Sequence record: PQ306574.1
DNA from: Escherichia phage vB_EcoM_PTE-Eco09
DNA: 64,000 nucleotides
Strand: one strand, 5' to 3'
Part shown: piece after piece, positions 48,169 through 59,213 of the stretch
Position numbering within the stretch: position 1 is the stretch's first letter
How the letters are laid out: each line of letters opens with the position of its first letter
Translations under genes and position numbers: made by a program
The notes under the pieces: generated by a model
The model's input: only the letters and a program-made list of their open reading frames with translations
Told to the model about the DNA's origin: nothing
The model's database searches: none

Positions 48169-48197
48169 TTGACAATAAGAAATGGGAGTAGTAAAAT
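48169..48197 (+). promoter_or_regulatory. Early promoter module with stem-loop over the -10 box
   Basis: TTGACA-N17-TAAAAT; inverted repeat GGGAGTA/TACTCCC (48184-48203). Confidence 0.6.
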
Positions 48198-48228
48198 ACT
48201 CCCATCTAATCAAGAAGGAGAATCAACA

Positions 48229-48501
48229 ATGCGTAAGATGTTTAAATCCGGTGTTGCCTATGTTTTTAAATCTGAGCAAGCACATAAAGACTTCTTAGAT
48301 GATGAATACGAAGGGGTGAAAGATACCTACGAAGTCATCAAGAATGGGTTTACTGTTCTTAAAGTGTCACCTGTTGGTTATGTAAGTGAAATCTCGGTTG
48401 ATGGGAAAACATACACCGCTAAAGACTTTGATCCGCGTTGGGAATTTATGCTGCTTCCGTGTGAGCGCATTCTGTTCCGTGCTGTTCAATTAGTGAAATG
48501 A
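48229..48501 (+). CDS. Modular family protein, short form (90 aa)
   Basis: AAGGAGAATCAACAATG leader; a K/E..GF.VLKV.. module also present in the next two ORFs. Confidence 0.5.
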   Translation: MRKMFKSGVAYVFKSEQAHKDFLDDEYEGVKDTYEVIKNGFTVLKVSPVGYVSEISVDGKTYTAKDFDPRWEFMLLPCERILFRAVQLVK

Positions 48502-48515
48502 TAGAGGATTATATT

Positions 48516-49082
48516 ATGGTACAGAAAACGTATAAATTGTATCCGGCTAAGTCTTCAAATGATGCTGTTTTTGAACGAGGTCGTTATTACACTTTCCGTA
48601 ATGCTGAGTCCGCAGAGGAATTTGTTAAACGCTACCAACAACATAACAAGTTCCTGTATGGTGTGCTTCACAGGGGCTTTAAAGTTCTTACGGTTAATGT
48701 TATGGGTAAAGTGTATTTGGTAGAAACTCATGATTATGAGGGTGCGTCAATCATGATTGATGCAAGCGAGCGCAAATACTTTAAACGCATCACTAAAAAG
48801 CAGTTTGAAGAAATGAAACCAGTTAAGAAAGAAGAATCTCTGGAAGATCTGATTAACTTGTTTGGTAAAGTTCGCTCTATCTCCTTTGCGATTGAAGATG
48901 ACATTACCGACAATAAAATCTTTATCAAGAACGCGGAAGACCTGAAAGAGTTCCTTATTGAAAATAGATCTCGGCTGGAAACCTTTCTTGAAAGTGAAAT
49001 TATTCGACATGATACCTACGCTAAATTCAGCGCCGATAAAGTAGCTGAACTGAAAGAGATCCAAAAGTCATTTAACGCTTGA
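48516..49082 (+). CDS. Modular family protein (188 aa)
   Basis: AGAGGATTATATTATG leader; shares NERKYFKRI(T/S)K and a C-terminal LFG..xxLKxFLI module with 49139..50317. Confidence 0.5.
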   Translation: MVQKTYKLYPAKSSNDAVFERGRYYTFRNAESAEEFVKRYQQHNKFLYGVLHRGFKVLTVNVMGKVYLVETHDYEGASIMIDASERKYFKRITKKQFEEMKPVKKEESLEDLINLFGKVRSISFAIEDDITDNKIFIKNAEDLKEFLIENRSRLETFLESEIIRHDTYAKFSADKVAELKEIQKSFNA

Positions 49083-49107
49083 CATGATGAAACGGGAGTA
49101 GTAAGAT
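49079..49107 (+). promoter_or_regulatory. Early promoter module with stem-loop over the -10 box
   Basis: TTGACA-N17-TAAGAT; inverted repeat GGGAGTA/TACTCCC; the -35 overlaps the upstream stop codon. Confidence 0.6.
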
Positions 49108-49138
49108 ACTCCCGTCTAAACAACGAGAGGATTATATT

Positions 49139-50317
49139 ATGGCTAAATTCTTTGAAGGTCATTACTATGCATTCCGTGAAGGCGGTAAAGATGAGTTTCT
49201 AGACTTTTCTCGCTATTCAATTATTCTGACCGATGCTTCGCGCCGTGGTCATATTCGGGTTGCTGAAATCGTAGAAAAGGGCTTTAAAGTATTAGAAAAA
49301 GATGACCACGGTCATGTTATTACTATTGAAGCTGGAGATGTAGTTTATTCCGCTGAGGATATCGTTTATTATTGGTCTACTATGATTATGCACAATGAGC
49401 GCAAATACTTTAAACGTATCTCAAAAGAGGCATACGAAGCGATGAACAAGAAAGAGGATGCAATGCCGACTTACTTTGAAAAAGGTAAATGTTATTCGTT
49501 TACCCCAGAAGGTTTGCAAGAATTTAAGCGATTCTGGGGAGAGCATGACCCAGAGCACAAAGAAGCCATGAAACTTGTTGATTTTGTCGAATATGGCTTT
49601 TTAGTTGAAGAAGAATTGCACGGATCAGCTACCATGATCACCGCGAAAGGTGAAACCGTCAAGGCGGACCGTTTTTGTGACCAATGGAATTGCTTGTTTG
49701 ACGGTAGCGAATTTGAATACTTCGCGGAAATCACGAAACAACAATTTCATTCTATGCAAGCGGATGGTCAGAGATTTAAAGTAGGTGAACGCTACAAACC
49801 AAATCAGCATAATTTGCCATATTGGTTTACCGCTGAAACTGTATCAAGTCATGTTGTTGAAATTGTTCAAAAGCTGGGACAAGGATTTAAGGTAACTAAA
49901 GTAGATGATTATGGAAGTGTTGACGCGGTTGAAATTGATGGTGTAGAATATACACCGAAATCTTTCGGTCTTTGCTGGTATCACTTGATCAGCAATGATG
50001 AACGTTATAACTTTGTTGAACTGCCATCTGAACCGGAAGAAGCACTAGAAGATCATGATCATCTGTCTGAACTGGTTAAGCTGTTTGGTGATCTGCCGGA
50101 TGGTGTAGGCGTGGCGGTAATGGGTGAAGGTGCTGTTATCCGAAACCTGAAAGACTTTAAAAAGTTCTTGATTGACATGCTGCCTAAACTTGATGATAAT
50201 CTAGATACAGATATTCAGAATCGCAAAGAAATTGTTAAAGAGACTGAAAAAGAGATCGAAGAGATTCGAGCAATTCGCCAGAAGGTGAAAGCAGTAAAGA
50301 AAAAAGTTAGTGCTTGA
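49139..50317 (+). CDS. Modular family protein, long form (392 aa)
   Basis: AGAGGATTATATTATG leader; internal repeats of the module seen in the two preceding ORFs. Confidence 0.55.
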   Translation: MAKFFEGHYYAFREGGKDEFLDFSRYSIILTDASRRGHIRVAEIVEKGFKVLEKDDHGHVITIEAGDVVYSAEDIVYYWSTMIMHNERKYFKRISKEAYEAMNKKEDAMPTYFEKGKCYSFTPEGLQEFKRFWGEHDPEHKEAMKLVDFVEYGFLVEEELHGSATMITAKGETVKADRFCDQWNCLFDGSEFEYFAEITKQQFHSMQADGQRFKVGERYKPNQHNLPYWFTAETVSSHVVEIVQKLGQGFKVTKVDDYGSVDAVEIDGVEYTPKSFGLCWYHLISNDERYNFVELPSEPEEALEDHDHLSELVKLFGDLPDGVGVAVMGEGAVIRNLKDFKKFLIDMLPKLDDNLDTDIQNRKEIVKETEKEIEEIRAIRQKVKAVKKKVSA

Positions 50318-50341
50318 CATGCGAAGGGAGTATGCTATAAT
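50314..50341 (+). promoter_or_regulatory. Early promoter module with stem-loop over the -10 box
   Basis: TTGACA-N16-TATAAT; inverted repeat GGGAGTA/TACTCCC (50326-50347). Confidence 0.6.
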
Positions 50342-50371
50342 ACTCCCACTTAACAACGAGAGGATTATATT

Positions 50372-50866
50372 ATGTGGGTACAAGATGTTTGGTATACTGT
50401 AACTAAAGAAAACCTTGACGCATTCAGCGACCAATCTTGCGCTAATAGCTCAATTGCTGGTATACTTACTGATGTGTTTGGTGGTGTAGATAAAATTCGT
50501 TTTAAAGTTGTTGTTAGTTCGCTGGGTCAGGTGAAAGATCTTTACACCGAAGATAAAGACCTTGATCTTGAACTTCGTCTTCGTATTGATAATGCAAGTC
50601 TAGGTTATTGGTTTGAAGATAACGAATATGAATACTTCACGCCAGCAATTAAAGTTTTTGCGACTAAACTGGAAGCTGTACTGAATCTCCGACCAATTAA
50701 TGTTGACGGATACATTATCAAAAATATTCAGGATTGGGAGTTGTATCTAGATCAGGTTATCCGAAATAGTAAGCAGGAAGCCGCTAATAAGAAGCGACAA
50801 GAGATTAAACAGCTTAAAGCTGAACTAGAAGCTAAAGAAAAAGAATTAGCAGAACTGGTAAAATAA
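50372..50866 (+). CDS. Hypothetical protein with C-terminal coiled coil (164 aa)
   Basis: AGAGGATTATATTATG leader; KKRQEIKQLKAELEAKEKELAELVK. Confidence 0.55.
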   Translation: MWVQDVWYTVTKENLDAFSDQSCANSSIAGILTDVFGGVDKIRFKVVVSSLGQVKDLYTEDKDLDLELRLRIDNASLGYWFEDNEYEYFTPAIKVFATKLEAVLNLRPINVDGYIIKNIQDWELYLDQVIRNSKQEAANKKRQEIKQLKAELEAKEKELAELVK

Positions 50867-52778: not shown

Positions 52779-52810
52779 AGCCGATCCGAAAGGGTCGGCT
52801 TTTTCGTTTT
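52779..52810 (+). terminator. Rho-independent terminator
   Basis: AGCCGATCCGAAAGGGTCGGCT hairpin followed by TTTTTCGTTTT. Confidence 0.7.
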
Positions 52811-52816
52811 GGGGTG

Positions 52817-52844
52817 TTGACAACATGATTAGCTAATGTATAAT
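52817..52844 (+). promoter_or_regulatory. Early promoter module (TTGACA-N16-TATAAT)
   Basis: GGGGTGTTGACA..TGTATAAT. Confidence 0.65.
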
Positions 52845-52873: not shown

Positions 52874-53413
52874 ATGATGATGTTTTGTGTACTGAACAAA
52901 GAAGTTAAACTTCGTAAACTGGAAATTGGCGATGGTGTTGTTGTTAAAATGCACGCTAGCACATTGACTAGTTTTAATTTAAAGGAAAGTTTTTTTATTA
53001 GAGGAACGGTGGTTAATATCTGCTGGAGTCAAGGCGAAGGAATCCGTAGCTTTTGCGTAATTGACGATGATAATAACCTGTATGTGATTCGCTATCATAA
53101 TAATTCTGTATTGGTCTATACCGACAATTCACGAGAATTGTATACTCTTGAATTTGTTAAGCGTACTGATTGCGATCGATTTGTTCGTGCTTATGAAGAA
53201 GATGGCTGTTTTGCGACTGAAACAGAAACAAATGAATATGTTCCTATGGAAGTAGGGGCAGAAATTAAACACAAGATCACGGATCGTATTTTTAAGGTTG
53301 TGGCGGTTGCTCATACTCAATTTGTAGCGCAAGCGCCGGATGAAGAATTTATTATCTACAATATTGGTAATGCAAGTTCTCATTTTCATAATGTACTATA
53401 TCGCGACCTTTGA
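52874..53413 (+). CDS. Hypothetical protein (179 aa)
   Basis: ATG after the promoter; GAGAGGA RBS. Confidence 0.55.
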   Translation: MMMFCVLNKEVKLRKLEIGDGVVVKMHASTLTSFNLKESFFIRGTVVNICWSQGEGIRSFCVIDDDNNLYVIRYHNNSVLVYTDNSRELYTLEFVKRTDCDRFVRAYEEDGCFATETETNEYVPMEVGAEIKHKITDRIFKVVAVAHTQFVAQAPDEEFIIYNIGNASSHFHNVLYRDL

Positions 53414-53430: not shown

Positions 53431-53958
53431 ATGAAATCATTAAACCGTAAGCGTAAAGCACAACGACACAAAGAACGAGCTAAAAAGATTGCTATTGAAC
53501 TTGTAGAGCGAGAAGATAACTATTTGTCTACGGGTCGTTTGTATACATTCCATGCATTGATTGATGGTAAGCCAGTGTTGCATAATCATGATTGCTTAGC
53601 ACTGTTTCACGAGATCGAACCAATCCATCGTGAATGGGATGACAACAAAGCAAAAGGACAATATTTCCTTACTTGTTCGTGTGGTCATGCTGGATGTGCT
53701 GGATATTGGGAACCTGTTACGATCCGTGAGAAAACTGATACTATTCAATGGGTCGCCAGTACCCGCGATGGTTATGATAAAGGGGTTGATGGTACTGGTG
53801 ATAACGTAGTTTACTTTAATCGTGATTGGTATTGTATGGCGCGATGTATGATCCTGTTTTATCTTGACTCGATGCCGTATGAATATTTCAGTTTCCAGAA
53901 CGGGTCCGAAATGACAGGGAAGGAATGGTCTGAATACATTCGAAAAAATTTAAAATAA
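53431..53958 (+). CDS. Hypothetical protein (175 aa)
   Basis: ATG with GAGGTGA RBS (the track start is TTG); basic N-terminus; CSCGHAGCAGYW. Confidence 0.5.
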   Translation: MKSLNRKRKAQRHKERAKKIAIELVEREDNYLSTGRLYTFHALIDGKPVLHNHDCLALFHEIEPIHREWDDNKAKGQYFLTCSCGHAGCAGYWEPVTIREKTDTIQWVASTRDGYDKGVDGTGDNVVYFNRDWYCMARCMILFYLDSMPYEYFSFQNGSEMTGKEWSEYIRKNLK

Positions 53959-53962
53959 ATGC

Positions 53963-53991
53963 TTGACGGGGATCGCGAGATCCCCTATACT
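53963..53991 (+). promoter_or_regulatory. Early promoter module with spacer stem-loop
   Basis: TTGACG-N17-TATACT; spacer palindrome GGGGATCGCGAGATCCCC. Confidence 0.55.
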
Positions 53992-54033
53992 ATATTCATC
54001 AAGACGAGATACAACTTTACAGGAGAATCAAAT

Positions 54034-54186
54034 ATGTGGACTTTACTGATTTGGGAAACTGAAAACGCACAAGTAGAAATCCGTGAATACGAATACCTAA
54101 GCCCAGCTTATCTATTAGCATCTCGCGGTGGTTACTATAAAGCGCAGATTGTAAACGAGTTCGGGGTAATTGAATATGAGTTCTGA
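54034..54186 (+). CDS. Small protein (50 aa)
   Basis: ATG after the promoter and CAGGAGAATCAAATATG leader. Confidence 0.45.
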   Translation: MWTLLIWETENAQVEIREYEYLSPAYLLASRGGYYKAQIVNEFGVIEYEF

Positions 54187-54679
54187 TACATACGGCAAGC
54201 TACGCTATGCCGATATTAAAGATTGTGATATGGTGAACGGTGAGGGAGTGAGAGTCTCCCTTTACGTTACCGGATGTTCACACGCATGTGATGGTTGCTT
54301 TAATGCTAGCCTACTCAATCCTAAGAACGGGGAACCATTCACCGATGATACAATGGGATTGATTCTGGATCTGCTTAGACCTGATTTTATTCAGGGGCTA
54401 ACATTCTTAGGTGGCGATCCATTGTATAAACGCAATTTAAAGGGTGTACAGCGGATCATCGATGAAGTAAAATCATGGATGCCAAATAAAGATATTTGGC
54501 TATGGTCTGGTTATACCCTTGACCAATTGAATGATGAGCAAAGAAAAATTGTAGAATCAGTTGACATGTTCATCGATGGGCGTTATATTAAAGATATGCC
54601 AACGAAGAAGCCGTGGCGGGGGTCTGACAATCAAGTACAATACAAGATTGTTAATAGTATTCCAGTGAAAATTATTTGA
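54176..54679 (+). CDS. nrdG: Anaerobic ribonucleotide reductase activating protein (radical SAM)
   Basis: YVTGCSHACDGCFN CxxxCxxC cluster; 167 aa; adjacent to nrdD. Confidence 0.8.
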   Translation: MSSDTYGKLRYADIKDCDMVNGEGVRVSLYVTGCSHACDGCFNASLLNPKNGEPFTDDTMGLILDLLRPDFIQGLTFLGGDPLYKRNLKGVQRIIDEVKSWMPNKDIWLWSGYTLDQLNDEQRKIVESVDMFIDGRYIKDMPTKKPWRGSDNQVQYKIVNSIPVKII

Positions 54680-54689
54680 GGTGATTATT

Positions 54690-55217
54690 ATGGAATGGGA
54701 AGTTGGTAAAACTTACAAGATTGAATGCGAAGCGTCGAAAGCCGAACTGACTAAATTTTCGTCGTCTATTAACAGATGTATTGTTGACTTGTTGGCTGGT
54801 CGCCCGTTTAGGGTAGAAGACCTTGACGATGATGGTGATGTTAGAGAAATTACTATTATTGGTAGTAATTTCGACTCTATGACGTTAAAAGAATCCCCTA
54901 TTGGCTGTTCCGGTGTGTGGTTTTGGTCGGGTGAGCGTCGTTTCTTTACCGAAGTTACTATTGAACCTAAGATTCCAGAATCGGAAGAAAAAGAAGAAGA
55001 CCTAACTTTAGAACGTCTGGGTCTGCTTATGGAAGCCTACGACATTCAGTTGATCGATAAGATGGGGTTACATAATAGCATTGCCAAAATTACTACCATA
55101 GAAGGTATTAAGAGCGTACTGGATGGTATGCCTAGCCGGATCGGTGCTATCCGCGAATACAAGCAAACGCGCGACCGTATGATCCAATTAGAATCACGTA
55201 TCAAAAATGAGAGATGA
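54690..55217 (+). CDS. Repeat-module family protein 1 (WEVGKTY module)
   Basis: MEWEVGKTYK..WFWSGERRFFTEV; GAGGTGA RBS. Confidence 0.5.
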   Translation: MEWEVGKTYKIECEASKAELTKFSSSINRCIVDLLAGRPFRVEDLDDDGDVREITIIGSNFDSMTLKESPIGCSGVWFWSGERRFFTEVTIEPKIPESEEKEEDLTLERLGLLMEAYDIQLIDKMGLHNSIAKITTIEGIKSVLDGMPSRIGAIREYKQTRDRMIQLESRIKNER

Positions 55218-55221
55218 TATT

Positions 55222-55707
55222 ATGAAATGGGAAGAAGGGAAGACATATAAGTTGGTTGGTGAGGACGAAAAGCGCATTTTGCGTGATTGTTGGCGTTACG
55301 AACAAAAACCTAATATTGATGGTGTGTTTACATATCTAGATAAACCATTTACTGTCGCTACGGTAGACCGTTGGGGTAATGTACGTTCAATCTATAATCA
55401 CGAAGGGGATTATATTAGTTCTATCGATGTTGGTGATAATATATGGTTTTCCGATGGCGACCGAGCGTGCTTCAAAGAAGTTTTATTGCCTGGTCATGAA
55501 TATGATCTAATAGACCTTCTCAAATTGGCGATGGATAATTATAAAATTCGCTTTGAATGCAAATCACATGCGGCTATCGGTGCTAATGCCTTGCGTCATA
55601 TCTCCAGTTTTGAAGAGTTGAAAGATTTTCTTGACAAAATGCCGGAAAGAGTGCAAGCTATACAGGAAGCAGAGAAAGCATTAAACGAACTTGATAAAAT
55701 CGGTTAA
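55222..55707 (+). CDS. Repeat-module family protein 2
   Basis: MKWEEGKTYK..WFSDGDRACFKEV; C-terminal helical tail similar to protein 1. Confidence 0.5.
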   Translation: MKWEEGKTYKLVGEDEKRILRDCWRYEQKPNIDGVFTYLDKPFTVATVDRWGNVRSIYNHEGDYISSIDVGDNIWFSDGDRACFKEVLLPGHEYDLIDLLKLAMDNYKIRFECKSHAAIGANALRHISSFEELKDFLDKMPERVQAIQEAEKALNELDKIG

Positions 55708-55719
55708 GGGGAATATATT

Positions 55720-56286
55720 ATGAAATGGGAAATTGGTAAAACTTACACCTGGAAAGATGAAAACGCTAAAACTGAGTTTATTACTAACGGAGAAGGTGTT
55801 CTTTCTCCACTTAACAGCGATATTAGTGCAGCTATTGGTGACAAGCCATTTACCATCATCGAGATCGATGGTAACGGTTGGATTGATGCAATAGAGCTAG
55901 ACGGTGTTTATCATACGGCGAAAACTGCTACAGGAAAAGACATTTGGACTGCAACATATTTCTTTAGTCCATTCGATCGAAAATTCTTTCGTGAAGTTGA
56001 AGAAGTTCCCCAGAAATGGGAAGTTGGTAAAACTTATACTTGGAAAGATGCGAATGCTATGACCGACTTCTGTCATTATGCTGAAAACGTATCTAATCTT
56101 AATTATGTTATTGCACGAGCAATAAATTATAGACCTTTTACTGTTAAAAATGTTCGTCCATGTGGGCAAATTGATGTAATTGAAATTGATGGTAAAGACC
56201 ATACTCTAATGAGCGCAACCGAAGATAGAGACCATAAGGAACTAGCTGGTTTATTGATTCTGATAGAAAATTCTTTCGTGAAGTAG
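55720..56286 (+). CDS. Repeat-module family protein 3 (two tandem modules; second module frameshifted at its end)
   Basis: MKWEIGKTYTWKDENA..FDRKFFREVEEV then KWEVGKTYTWKDANA..; the reading frame loses the module end about 56235-56250. Confidence 0.45.
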   Translation: MKWEIGKTYTWKDENAKTEFITNGEGVLSPLNSDISAAIGDKPFTIIEIDGNGWIDAIELDGVYHTAKTATGKDIWTATYFFSPFDRKFFREVEEVPQKWEVGKTYTWKDANAMTDFCHYAENVSNLNYVIARAINYRPFTVKNVRPCGQIDVIEIDGKDHTLMSATEDRDHKELAGLLILIENSFVK

Positions 56287-56291
56287 AAGAA

Positions 56292-56543
56292 TTGGAAGTT
56301 ATAACCACTGATTCTAAGATCGTTGGACAGTTGAAACGTCTGTTTAGTAGTCGTTACGGCCTGACAATGGTTAAATTTGGCGAAGCAAATGAAGGTAAAA
56401 CCTTTGAACGTTTCGATGATTTCATTGCGGCACTTGACAAGATGGATGAAATCATGCAAGATCGCCAGAAGATTAAAGACCTTCAAGAAGACATTAAACG
56501 TCGTGAAGTTGAATTTTTGATTGGTAAAGAGCGAGGTTGGTAA
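56292..56543 (+). pseudogene. Frame-shifted continuation of repeat-module protein 3 (probable disrupted gene segment)
   Basis: In the -1 frame from 56238 the DNA encodes GTSWFIDSDRKFFREVEEL.., homologous to the module end and continuing to 56543; there is no ATG start (the track start is TTG). Confidence 0.4.
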
Positions 56544-56544
56544 T

Positions 56545-57021
56545 ATGTTTGTTGTTGGTATGACCTATCAGTGGAAAAACGAACAAGCGCGTAAAGCATT
56601 TGCAACCAGTGATGCGAATCGTGTGATCTCCGAGTTTATCGGGGACCGTGCGTTTAAAGTCTTAGCTATTGATTCATCTAGTATACCTGAGTATGTTTCT
56701 GTGATTGAAATCGATGGTAAGGCTTACCAGTGTCCAGACAATGAAAAGGTTTATCTTTATGCTTGTAATTGGTTTTCGCCTACAGAAGATCAATATTTTA
56801 AAGTGGTATCAGCAGAGCTATCATCCGAAGCAATGATGCAACAATTCTTCAATAACTACGAAGTTTCTGTGCGTCGCTATGGCGAAGAAGAAGTGTTTAA
56901 AATCGATGATTACAATCAGTTTAAACGAGTATTCGCCACTAAGTTACAGCGTGACTTTGAACGTGACCAACGGATCAAGGAACTGGAAGAAGAACTAGAA
57001 AGATTAAAGGCTGAGAAATGA
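56545..57021 (+). CDS. Repeat-module family protein 4
   Basis: MFVVGMTYQWKNEQA..WFSPTEDQYFKVV; CGAGGTTGG RBS. Confidence 0.5.
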   Translation: MFVVGMTYQWKNEQARKAFATSDANRVISEFIGDRAFKVLAIDSSSIPEYVSVIEIDGKAYQCPDNEKVYLYACNWFSPTEDQYFKVVSAELSSEAMMQQFFNNYEVSVRRYGEEEVFKIDDYNQFKRVFATKLQRDFERDQRIKELEEELERLKAEK

Positions 57022-57287
57022 TCGAGATATACGGTATACCGAAAGAGGCTTATCATTGTTATGGTTGTATTAGTGCAATGAAGCTACTGGATGATCTGGG
57101 TATTCCGTATACACTTAAACCAGTATTCAAGCAGGTCGGGGTTGACATTATTCCCGACCGTGATATGATTGAAGAACTGGCGGGGAGGCTAAACTCAAAG
57201 AGCCTCCGGTTTGTATACCCCCAGATATTCATTGACAACGAGCACATTGGAGGCTATAAAGAACTGAGGGCGATTTATGATTATTGA
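57018..57287 (+). CDS. nrdH: Glutaredoxin-like protein (NrdH-like)
   Basis: CYGC redox motif near the N-terminus; IGGYKEL near the C-terminus; ATGA overlap with the upstream gene. Confidence 0.6.
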   Translation: MIEIYGIPKEAYHCYGCISAMKLLDDLGIPYTLKPVFKQVGVDIIPDRDMIEELAGRLNSKSLRFVYPQIFIDNEHIGGYKELRAIYDY

Positions 57288-57435
57288 GAATTTAGTTTCG
57301 GTGTTCATTATTGCTTTATTTGCTATAATGGCTTTACCGTTGAAGAAGTGTAAACACTGTAACGGAACAGGATTGCGTGGTGATGGGTGTTGCGCTCATT
57401 GTCACGGATCTGGTAAAGTAAGTATCATTAAGTAA
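57277..57435 (+). CDS. Small membrane-anchored DnaJ-type zinc-finger protein (52 aa)
   Basis: Hydrophobic N-terminus then CKHCNGTG..CAHCHGSG (two CxxCxGxG motifs); overlaps the nrdH stop; not in the ORF track. Confidence 0.4.
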   Translation: MIIENLVSVFIIALFAIMALPLKKCKHCNGTGLRGDGCCAHCHGSGKVSIIK

Positions 57436-57456: not shown

Positions 57457-57744
57457 ATGTTAGTACACAATGCAATCGCACACATGGTTTATTCTCGATT
57501 TGGGCGCATGGAAGAAATCAATATTACCGACGCGGATTTAGATCTGATGCAAGTCGAAGGCCAGACATATCTGAAAAATAACGGCGTGAATATCGGTAAA
57601 GCGCGTGTGCGTGAATTGTTGGTTGAATATATTCTCTCTGAATTTGGCATTAGTGCTTTCGGTGTGAAAGAGATTGCACCTAAGCGCGAAATTTCTGATA
57701 AAATGATCAAGAAATGCCAGAAAGCACGACGTAAGGGTTTCTAA
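57457..57744 (+). CDS. Hypothetical protein (95 aa)
   Basis: GTGAGGAATATATTATG leader. Confidence 0.5.
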   Translation: MLVHNAIAHMVYSRFGRMEEINITDADLDLMQVEGQTYLKNNGVNIGKARVRELLVEYILSEFGISAFGVKEIAPKREISDKMIKKCQKARRKGF

Positions 57745-59213
57745 TGAAGATTGAAACATTAATCGCATTGCCAGCGGCGGGGAAAACTGATGCTATACTT
57801 TCCCACGTCCTAGAGACAAAAGAAAAAGCGGTTATTGCTTCGCCATCTCGTGTTTTAAGTGAACAATCTTACAATAAGTTTAAAAGAATGGGCGGTCGTG
57901 CTGTCTTGATTGATAGCACAAGACTAAGAAGCCTTAAGACAGTGCAAGCGTCGATAATGCAATCAGTTAAAGACGGTGCTGATGTGATATTCATTACACA
58001 TACAGCGTTATCTAATATGGAACGTTCAAAAATGTTTGGTGATTATGCTCTTTACATTGATGAAGTTCCTCAACTGGTTGAATTTAATGAGTATCCGTTT
58101 AAGTCTAATCTTGAACTTATCACGAAGCATTGCGAACCAATCGCCGACGAATCGGAATGCCTACAGAACTTAGTTCTAAAAGACTCTGAGAAGGCCGCTA
58201 TCAAAGAAAAGATAGAAAGTGCGAAGGATGGTACTGATATGATCGATTCTTCTCTTAGAGGGCTTTATGAGGCGTTATTAGAGAAGAAAATCAACGTTAT
58301 GGTAAAACATAACGAAGGACACCGGAAGAATGGGTCGAAAATTGTTTTCTTGAACGATAACAAACACGGTACGTGGGGAGACTTTAAAAAGGTTACGATA
58401 GCATGTGCAAATCTCTTTGATACATATAGTGGGAAGTATCTACGATACTATGCAAATTGCGATTTTGTTCCGAGTGCGCTAGAATCCAGACTATATTTCA
58501 AAGAGTATAAAAATACAGATAGAGTTAATATCATCCTTATGACGGACTCTGAACGATGGTCGCGTCACCAGTCAGAAACAAACAATACCTTTGAACGTCT
58601 TGTTGATATGGTTAAAAATGAATGTGGCGATGACTTCATTTATACCGTGAATCGGGACCGAGAAGCGTGTACAAATGGTATTGGTGAGCGGATACCTTAC
58701 GGATCTTATGGTCTTAACTCTTACATTCATCATAAAAATGTTGCTGTGATGTTCAGCTTTAACCCTCAACGATGGGAGATTGATATTTTAAAAGGTCTTG
58801 CTAATAGTTGTGATCTCCCGACAAATGAGTTTTTGAAAGCGCGTCATGTGTCTGATTATCTGGAACCAGCATTTCAATTATGTTTGCGTTGTAACCTGAG
58901 AGACAACGAGAGCAAGGAGAATGTTAATCTATATGTTCCTGATTGGGCGTTGGTGGATTATCTAAAAACGTTTCTACCTAATGCCAATGTAATAACAGAC
59001 CGAATGATTCCGCTAGAATGTGGTGAGCGTAAAGGGCGAAAATCATTTAAAAAGATGTTCGACTTTAACGAGCAAGAGAATGCAAGATTTAACGGATTTA
59101 AGTACCGCATGAAGAAAAAAGGAAAAACTCTTGATCCGTCTGACGGTGAATCAGTAGAGATGGTTAGAGTGTGGATAACTAAGCAAAGAAAGTATAATGG
59201 TAATGGGGAATAG
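57744..59213 (+). CDS. P-loop NTPase (helicase/translocase-like) of unknown function
   Basis: Walker A-like ALPAAGKTDA, then VIASPSRVL and Walker B-like YIDEVPQ; 489 aa. Confidence 0.5.
   Translation: MKIETLIALPAAGKTDAILSHVLETKEKAVIASPSRVLSEQSYNKFKRMGGRAVLIDSTRLRSLKTVQASIMQSVKDGADVIFITHTALSNMERSKMFGDYALYIDEVPQLVEFNEYPFKSNLELITKHCEPIADESECLQNLVLKDSEKAAIKEKIESAKDGTDMIDSSLRGLYEALLEKKINVMVKHNEGHRKNGSKIVFLNDNKHGTWGDFKKVTIACANLFDTYSGKYLRYYANCDFVPSALESRLYFKEYKNTDRVNIILMTDSERWSRHQSETNNTFERLVDMVKNECGDDFIYTVNRDREACTNGIGERIPYGSYGLNSYIHHKNVAVMFSFNPQRWEIDILKGLANSCDLPTNEFLKARHVSDYLEPAFQLCLRCNLRDNESKENVNLYVPDWALVDYLKTFLPNANVITDRMIPLECGERKGRKSFKKMFDFNEQENARFNGFKYRMKKKGKTLDPSDGESVEMVRVWITKQRKYNGNGE

Follow-up and report, generated by a model that had tools for sequence, protein, structure and literature searches.

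Why should an RB49-like phage carry a run of similar, mostly unnamed genes in the middle of its anaerobic ribonucleotide reductase cluster, and what might their products do? The question is raised by a 64,000-nt stretch of DNA from Escherichia phage vB_EcoM_PTE-Eco09 (PQ306574.1; the whole stretch is hereafter called the window), in which four consecutive genes, here A, B, C and D, occupy positions 54690-57021 between nrdG and nrdH. The nucleotide match places the window in Krischvirus, the RB49-like T4-type coliphages, and its gene order is gene 49 (endonuclease VII), nrdD, three small open reading frames (ORFs), nrdG, A-D, nrdH and, later, gene 55. An earlier note on this DNA had described a tandem family of repeat-module proteins here. 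The observation is real and somewhat larger than described: the proteins are added members of a recently described phage family, and the four genes of 54690-57021 are joined by four more upstream of nrdD, at 48229-50866, which a hidden Markov model (HMM) of the module located between gene 49 and nrdD (E, F, G and H). The window thus holds 8 GoF-like genes with 11 modules flanking the nrdD-nrdG segment (Table 1). That the family is tandem, paralogous and includes a double-module gene stands as first described; a frameshift in that gene, C, had been overlooked.

The genes A, B, C and D all open with ATG preceded by a Shine-Dalgarno-like sequence, and each encodes an N-terminal module of about 90 amino acids (aa) that starts with [M/K]-W/F-E/V-x-G-K/M-T-Y and ends with [WF]F-x3-4-[DE]-x-x-x-F-x-[EV]-V. 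In BLASTP comparisons modules of A-D matched one another at 29-35% identity (E 1e-6 to 1e-12) and the two modules of C at 52% identity (E 7e-28); A and D gave no direct match and are connected via C. Since all four proteins match the single PHROG family phrog_5347 (E 1e-54 to 1e-66), the repeat is real and well past chance. The pairwise comparisons and this shared family bear out the earlier proposal of a common N-terminal module, and its shared motifs hold up as significant (E 1e-6 to 1e-28 in pairwise alignments). The proposed start consensus was accurate, and the second module of C begins at 56014 (KWEVGKTYTWKDANA), where it had been placed. No gene of the four has an exact match to the proposed end motif, F-x-x-[RD]-[RK]-x-F-x-[EK]-V, but the core of that motif, F-x-E/V-V after an acidic/basic pair, is genuine.

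In further PHROG scans the module matched families that bear the label "goF mRNA metabolism modulator". T4 GoF and Frd.2 have their best match in phrog_622 (E 5e-38 and 4e-46, respectively), which A-D match too; GoF also matches phrog_5347 (E 6.5e-7); and phrog_3710 is matched both by gene H (E 2e-4) and by GoF (E 8e-12). Profile-profile comparison of our family with hhalign gave a probability of 98.0% for GoF (E 2e-13, GoF residues 3-92), 93% for Frd.2 (E 4e-7) and 72% for MotB.1. Weak module HMM scores were obtained for the middle module of G (18 bits) and for the H module (19.5 bits), both of which are full length and in register. In existing annotation the RB49 orthologues of F and G are labelled goF in RefSeq and A-D are "hypothetical" in eight records, and scans against Pfam, NCBIfam and PADLOC returned chance-level matches only.

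In the description of the GoF/Frd.2/MotB.1 family by Kim et al. (2025, PMC12152347), members begin with a five-stranded "LSm-like" barrel, which a flexible linker joins to a C-terminal domain whose structure varies from member to member. The proteins of the window display the same plan, with N-terminal homology, a five-stranded barrel predicted in the first half by AlphaFold2 (AF2), and a flexible linker followed by a C-terminal domain; gene E departs from it in encoding the head only. A relationship of the tails to those of GoF and Frd.2, which membership of the family does not demand, was plausible by eye and was not supported, the tail profile (A5) reaching hhalign probabilities of just 2.8% and 0.6%. 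The profile comparisons thus indicate that only the head is common to these proteins and T4 GoF/Frd.2. The function, which the earlier note had given as unknown, can be narrowed to the extent that the module is identified as the N-terminal domain of T4 GoF/Frd.2; its role we only infer. On balance we regard A-H as a lineage-specific expansion of the GoF/Frd.2 family. In T4 the proteins are single-headed and come from three dispersed loci, whereas here eight genes form two tandem arrays that include two- and three-head proteins.

The AF2 model of protein D, based on a 41-sequence alignment, has a mean predicted local distance difference test score (pLDDT) of 89.6. Its head is predicted with pLDDT >90 over the domain and contains strands at residues 6-10, 37-43, 50-56, 59-62 and 85-90, in the order b1, two helices, b2-b3-b4, b5; both heads of the intact form of C are modelled with identical element order. 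Confidence falls to a pLDDT of 72 in the linker (residues 91-100), beyond which the tail is predicted to comprise a helix (94-104), a beta-hairpin (107-110 and 117-120) and, at 123-157, a helix of 35 residues whose end is heptad-like. Leave-one-out profile tests showed the tails of B, C, D and G to be related (0 of 500 shuffles reached the real score), with A and F marginal, and provided no support for a relation of the H tail to the others. Hence the "variable helical tail" of the earlier note gives way, in most of the proteins, to a shared helix/beta-hairpin/long-helix plan, to which the profile evidence does not extend H.

We tentatively describe the module as an SH3-like ("LSm-like") small beta-barrel with a two-helix insert; the assignment is weak because neither a Foldseek search nor a sequence search of the PDB returned anything significant. 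Among predicted viral structures there were 59 matches at E <= 1e-3. Nearly all are uncharacterised proteins, T4-like phages that infect a wide range of host genera contribute most of them, and one is Dc2 of phage ECD7 (BFVD, E 5e-5). The nearest folds are FeoA and the SH3-like domain of DtxR/IdeR (CATH 2.30.30.90). Compared with FeoA and the C-terminal SH3-like domain of DtxR/IdeR, however, the head has 10-13% identity, no Pfam FeoA match and no metal ligands, and neither sequence membership in FeoA (PF04023) or DtxR nor a metal-related context was found; the likeness is at the level of fold only. With Sm/LSm/Hfq proteins the predicted head has in common a small, strongly bent, five-stranded antiparallel barrel, and the comparison extends to the effect of a GoF mutant on RNA stability (PMC12152347). 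The combination of an N-terminal helix followed by five strands, Sm1/Sm2 motifs and a ring oligomer that marks Sm/LSm/Hfq was not found here. The mutant in question, GoF D25Y, stabilises gene 41 mRNA post-transcriptionally (PMC12152347). In BLASTP alignments GoF D25 aligns with the loop that connects the two helices inserted in the head, and this loop looks, by inspection of the paralogue alignment, to be among its most variable stretches, which is suggestive only.

Comparison with relatives revealed that the heads and tails of these proteins have had different histories. Within the genus nrdG and nrdH are 98-100% identical; identity falls to 65% for B in RB49 and to 69-77% for D in G5211, ECD7 and Makalu_002. 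In the comparison of B with RB49 the head has 46% aa identity and a synonymous divergence (dS) of 1.9, as opposed to 94% and 0.19 for the tail; for D against G5211 the corresponding dS values are 0.83 and 0.14. For heads the ratio of nonsynonymous to synonymous divergence (dN/dS) is about 0.3; for tails it is 0.06-0.23. DNA identity breaks sharply at module borders, namely at 55250-55516 in B (against RB49), 56619-56852 in D (against G5211) and 50370-50699 in H (against FL20), the last block having 43-63% identity as opposed to 93-100%. Cluster representatives compared with the window proteins gave the following head and tail identities: 1) 46% and 93% for A; 2) 43-55% and 99% for B; 3) 58-63% and 91-92% for D; 4) for the two heads and the tail of C, 98%, 39% and 100% against P0047, 68%, 96% and 97% against P0034, and 69%, 40% and 100% against P0057; and 5) the reverse pattern, 85-96% and 58-60%, for F. 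Thus five of the genes show cassette replacement, with heads of 39-63% identity on tails of 91-100%, and the two heads of C vary independently. Because high synonymous divergence is combined with purifying selection, these values indicate old head alleles exchanged by recombination and not rapid positive selection. Positive selection on the heads, considered as a candidate, is unsupported at a dN/dS of about 0.3 with saturated dS, and cassette exchange fits better.

In gene C two 30-nt repeats, 93% identical and about 288 nt apart, lie at the two module ends; they are candidates for the crossovers by which a module would be added or removed in frame. Of the "local gene amplification and recombination" seen by the earlier note, the recombination is evident; recent amplification is not, the paralogues being about 30% identical and the four-gene layout present in all 56 Krischvirus records that cover most of the query. 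What is ongoing is allelic replacement of the N-terminal module together with gain and loss of whole modules or genes.

Gene C is frameshifted in the window. Its frame is cut short by the loss of one A from an AAA run (CATAAAGGA to CATAAGGA); the -1 frame carries the last strand of module 2 (WFIDSDRKFFREVEE) and the tail, a continuation that the earlier note had not linked to the gene. In all eight relatives inspected (RB49, FL20, kvi, FL38, GEC-3S, G5211, ECD7 and Makalu_002) C is a single ORF of 825 nt and 274 aa, and the deletion is the sole frameshifting indel across 17.7 kb aligned to FL20, the other indel being an in-frame one of 6 nt at 53040. The downstream frame, shifted by -1 from that of the start codon and open from 56238, might suggest programmed ribosomal frameshifting yielding a short and a full-length product. 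We consider this extremely improbable and reject it, as the eight relatives encode C in one frame with the additional A and no X-XXY-YYZ slippery heptamer occurs at 56233-56250. The sequence is most simply read as having lost 1 nt or as containing a base-calling error: a genuine knockout in the one case, an isolated mistake in the record in the other. Other frameshifted or truncated copies of the family were also encountered, in ECD7 gene A (L007, 721-1212) and in the metagenomic P0068, P0071 and P0078, mostly at short homopolymers; they represent either recurrent inactivation or assembly errors.

The 3.1-kb nrdG-nrdH stretch is 99.7% identical to that of Escherichia phage FL20. All 58 matching records are RB49-like (Krischvirus) and at least 90% identical (93.8-99.7% for the 30 listed); coverage of the query reaches 80% or more in 56. 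The A-D layout is present in each of these 56 and intact in the eight viewed gene by gene, and tblastn with protein D recovered Krischvirus records only. A search of 1.84 billion representative proteins with the module profile gave 32 matches, of which two were spurious repeat proteins (P0083 and P0087); the remainder include two- or three-head proteins and other C-terminal domains. Copy number varies across relatives, as the earlier note had suggested comparing: in a more distant relative represented by two overlapping metagenomic contigs (L015 and L016) six consecutive single-head genes separate nrdG from nrdH, another contig (L017) has a two-head gene of 274 aa directly 5' of nrdH, and single-head versions of C (174-185 aa) exist. 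The canonical locus of RB49, between gene 39 and dexA, contains no goF, cef, motB or motB.1. Dc2 of RB49 (NC_005066, 11993-12628, L013; 211 aa), immediately upstream of the helicase gene 41, matches the head HMM at 28 bits, and the family count for the RB49 genome is a lower bound, about 87-137 kb being outside the scan. The placement of Dc2 5' of gene 41 is curious, given that in T4 the mRNA of gene 41 is what GoF(D25Y) affects.

The position inside the reductase cluster had been called notable. In T4 nothing separates gene 49 from nrdD, mobC and 55.8 alone flank nrdG, and neither place has a family member. In a sample of 80 nrdG loci from viral contigs, arrays were found at two, both on Krischvirus contigs and with 10 above-threshold modules each; the sole case outside Krischvirus was a single module gene directly downstream of nrdG (L042, 7786-8142) in a T4-like phage whose NrdG is 44% identical. 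As the arrays are confined to two Krischvirus contigs among 80 loci, the neighborhood is lineage-specific and reflects no general association. Both the synteny and the scan disfavor a functional link to nrdG, and the locus is probably a lineage-specific hyperplastic slot whose reductase surroundings are incidental.

Promoter-early stem-loop (PeSL) elements combined with ORFan cassettes were defined for the hyperplastic regions of RB49 and phi1 (Arbiol et al. 2010, PMC2839356), and nrdD was named there as a PeSL-associated gene (PMC2839356). In the window a strong sigma-70-like promoter with a stem-loop lies directly upstream of E, G and H, and not of F or A-D. Repeated cassettes in the region consist of TTGACA, a GGGAGTA...TACTCCC stem-loop around the -10 element and then CTAAACAACGAGAGGATTATATTATG. 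As in the PeSL cassettes of RB49 and phi1, E, G and H each have such an element and the genes differ between close relatives; unlike in those cassettes, the exchange breakpoints lie within genes, at the head/tail border, and not at the PeSLs. No promoter/stem-loop cassette occurs between A, B, C, D and nrdH, where gaps range from -4 to +12 nt, and there is no T4-type late promoter motif in the region. A-D probably belong to an early unit running through nrdG, A-D and nrdH that starts from the promoter at 52779-52844 or from weaker sites at 53963 and 54561.

How might such proteins act? T4 GoF (ComC-alpha) is early, abundant, nonessential and dimeric (PMC12152347; see also PMC2988021). In the mechanism we propose, the window proteins would likewise be produced early, from sigma-70-type promoters, and would be dispensable in the laboratory, a point on which the naturally frameshifted copies in isolates (gene C here and gene A of ECD7) bear. 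Each protein has one, two or three heads of about 90 aa; in every one but E these are followed by a linker and a C-terminal domain with a predicted helix, beta-hairpin and long amphipathic helix. The tail may dimerise the protein, as T4 GoF dimerises, and would form the constant oligomerisation or scaffold part, with the barrel as the ligand-binding head that bears specificity. By analogy with GoF D25Y, the heads would have RNA, or a host factor that handles RNA, as their ligand and in this way tune mRNA fate during host takeover, paralogues and alleles supplying differing specificities. Homologous recombination would shuffle the genes within a hyperplastic region rich in promoter/stem-loop cassettes, swap heads, and add or remove modules. 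This whole explanation, namely a GoF/Frd.2 expansion of early dimeric binders that affect RNA fate and evolve by recombination, is the one we favor, with moderate confidence. Two observations weigh against it: the modules are mostly acidic, that of F (net +5) being the sole basic one, and wild-type GoF, like MotB.1, had little effect on RNA (PMC12152347).

On account of these observations a protein-binding role is a serious rival, which we consider possible and distinctly less probable than the explanation just given. Under it, acidic SH3-like heads would serve as inhibitors or decoys that bind variable host proteins (defence components, nucleases or Rho) and not RNA, with tails for dimerisation and avidity, in an arms race with E. 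coli strains. Beyond the acidity of the heads and the lack of a clear RNA effect of wild-type GoF, it draws on the nearest folds, FeoA and the DtxR/IdeR SH3-like domain, being protein-interaction modules, on highly mosaic heads standing on near-invariant tails and swapped independently within one protein, on the location of the genes in a hyperplastic region beside other accessory ORFans, and on their dispensability, since isolates carry frameshifted copies. An arms race is less easily reconciled with a head dN/dS of about 0.3 and saturated dS, which point to old alleles recombined with no measurable positive selection. Moreover, there is no similarity to any PADLOC or other annotated family, and no partner is known, GoF pull-downs having recovered mainly GoF itself (PMC12152347).

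The position between nrd genes and the FeoA-like fold might instead suggest partners of the anaerobic ribonucleotide reductase, handling iron or Fe-S for NrdG or regulating NrdD; in view of T4 synteny and the nrdG-anchored 80-locus scan we find this improbable. Equally hard to credit is that the genes are functionless, decaying duplicates, junk from recombination between repeats in a plastic region. The frameshifted copies (gene C here, ECD7 gene A and the metagenomic P0068, P0071 and P0078) and the nonessentiality of the family in T4 would agree with decay. Yet A-D are kept in 56 Krischvirus records covering most of the query, dN/dS is 0.06-0.3, tails are near-invariant, structures are predicted confidently, and some of the frameshifts may be assembly errors. 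To the favored explanation can be added a more doubtful proposal: the arrays might supply the phage with a set of interchangeable binding heads, each carried by a dimeric stalk that stays constant. Homologous recombination close to the module borders would swap, duplicate and delete these SH3-like modules, so that each Krischvirus strain would present a different set of 10-11 specificities to variable host targets (e.g. defence or RNA-decay components). If true, this would amount to a domain-level cassette system for early host-takeover proteins, with a logic analogous to the swapping of tail-fibre adhesins.

What is new here are the multi-head architectures, the two arrays totalling 11 modules, and the exchange of head cassettes on conserved tails. 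GoF has been puzzling ever since goF mapping of rho (nusD) suppressor mutations. The Krischviruses provide eight natural GoF paralogues of one to three heads each, and a genus-wide library of head alleles on mostly identical tails, which offers a comparative and genetic handle on what a GoF-type barrel binds. In addition, four "hypothetical proteins" gain a family assignment and the gene model of C is corrected.

Table 1. GoF-like genes and putative regulatory elements of the window (coordinates are positions in the window)
Feature	Coordinates	Strand	Description
Gene A	54690..55217	+	175 aa; module aa 1-92, acidic linker, C-terminal domain; phrog_5347 E 5e-66, phrog_622 E 1e-10, module HMM 81 bits
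Gene B	55222..55707	+	161 aa; module aa 1-88 and C-terminal domain
Gene C as read in the window	55720..56286	+	188 aa; module 1 55720-56010, module 2 from 56014, truncated by the frameshift before its last strand
Gene C, 1-nt deletion site (AAA to AA)	56236..56237	+	from alignment with relatives
Gene C, displaced -1 frame	56238..56543	+	end of module 2 (WFIDSDRKFFREVEE) and C-terminal domain; mechanical ORF 56292-56543; phrog_5347 positions 74-165, E 4e-34
Gene D	56545..57021	+	158 aa; module aa 1-90 and C-terminal domain, heptad-like helix at end
Gene E	48229..48501	+	90 aa; module alone; module HMM 63 bits; phrog_16115, phrog_622 E 2e-7; RB49p060
Gene F	48516..49082	+	188 aa; module and C-terminal domain; RB49 orthologue "goF mRNA metabolism modulator" in RefSeq
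Gene G	49139..50317	+	392 aa; 3 tandem modules aa 4-94, 113-198, 213-295 and C-terminal domain; RB49p058 "frd.2 / goF mRNA metabolism modulator"
Gene H	50372..50866	+	164 aa; divergent module (19.5 bits; phrog_3710 E 2e-4) and coiled-coil tail
PeSL-type element 5' of E	48169..48209	+	TTGACA, 17 nt, TAAAAT; GGGAGTA/TACTCCC stem-loop over -10
PeSL-type element 5' of G	49079..49119	+	consensus sigma-70 promoter and GGGAGTA/TACTCCC stem-loop over -10
PeSL-type element 5' of H	50314..50353	+	12/12 sigma-70 consensus
Intrinsic-terminator-like hairpin after nrdD, then promoter	52779..52844	+	12/12 sigma-70 consensus
Candidate sigma-70-like site	54561..54589	+	11/12; within the 3' end of nrdG, about 100 nt upstream of A

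Several neighboring genes deserve mention. The three ORFs between nrdD and nrdG (52874-53413, 53431-53958 and 53959-54186) are not GoF-like, and the first of them (PHROG-14838) has an in-frame 6-nt deletion at 53040 relative to phage FL20. A 52-aa ORF at 57277-57435 overlaps the end of nrdH. Its N-terminus is hydrophobic, and the sequence after it, CKHCNGTG...CCAHCHGSGK, resembles a pair of DnaJ-type CxxCxGxG zinc-finger-like motifs, which recur in a 59-aa counterpart lying 3' of nrdH on contig L017. Further downstream, 57744-59213 encodes a conserved hypothetical protein of 489 aa (RB49p044) that has, close to the N-terminus, a GKT motif resembling a P-loop, and its 485-aa counterpart on L017 has a weak DEAD-helicase match in Pfam.

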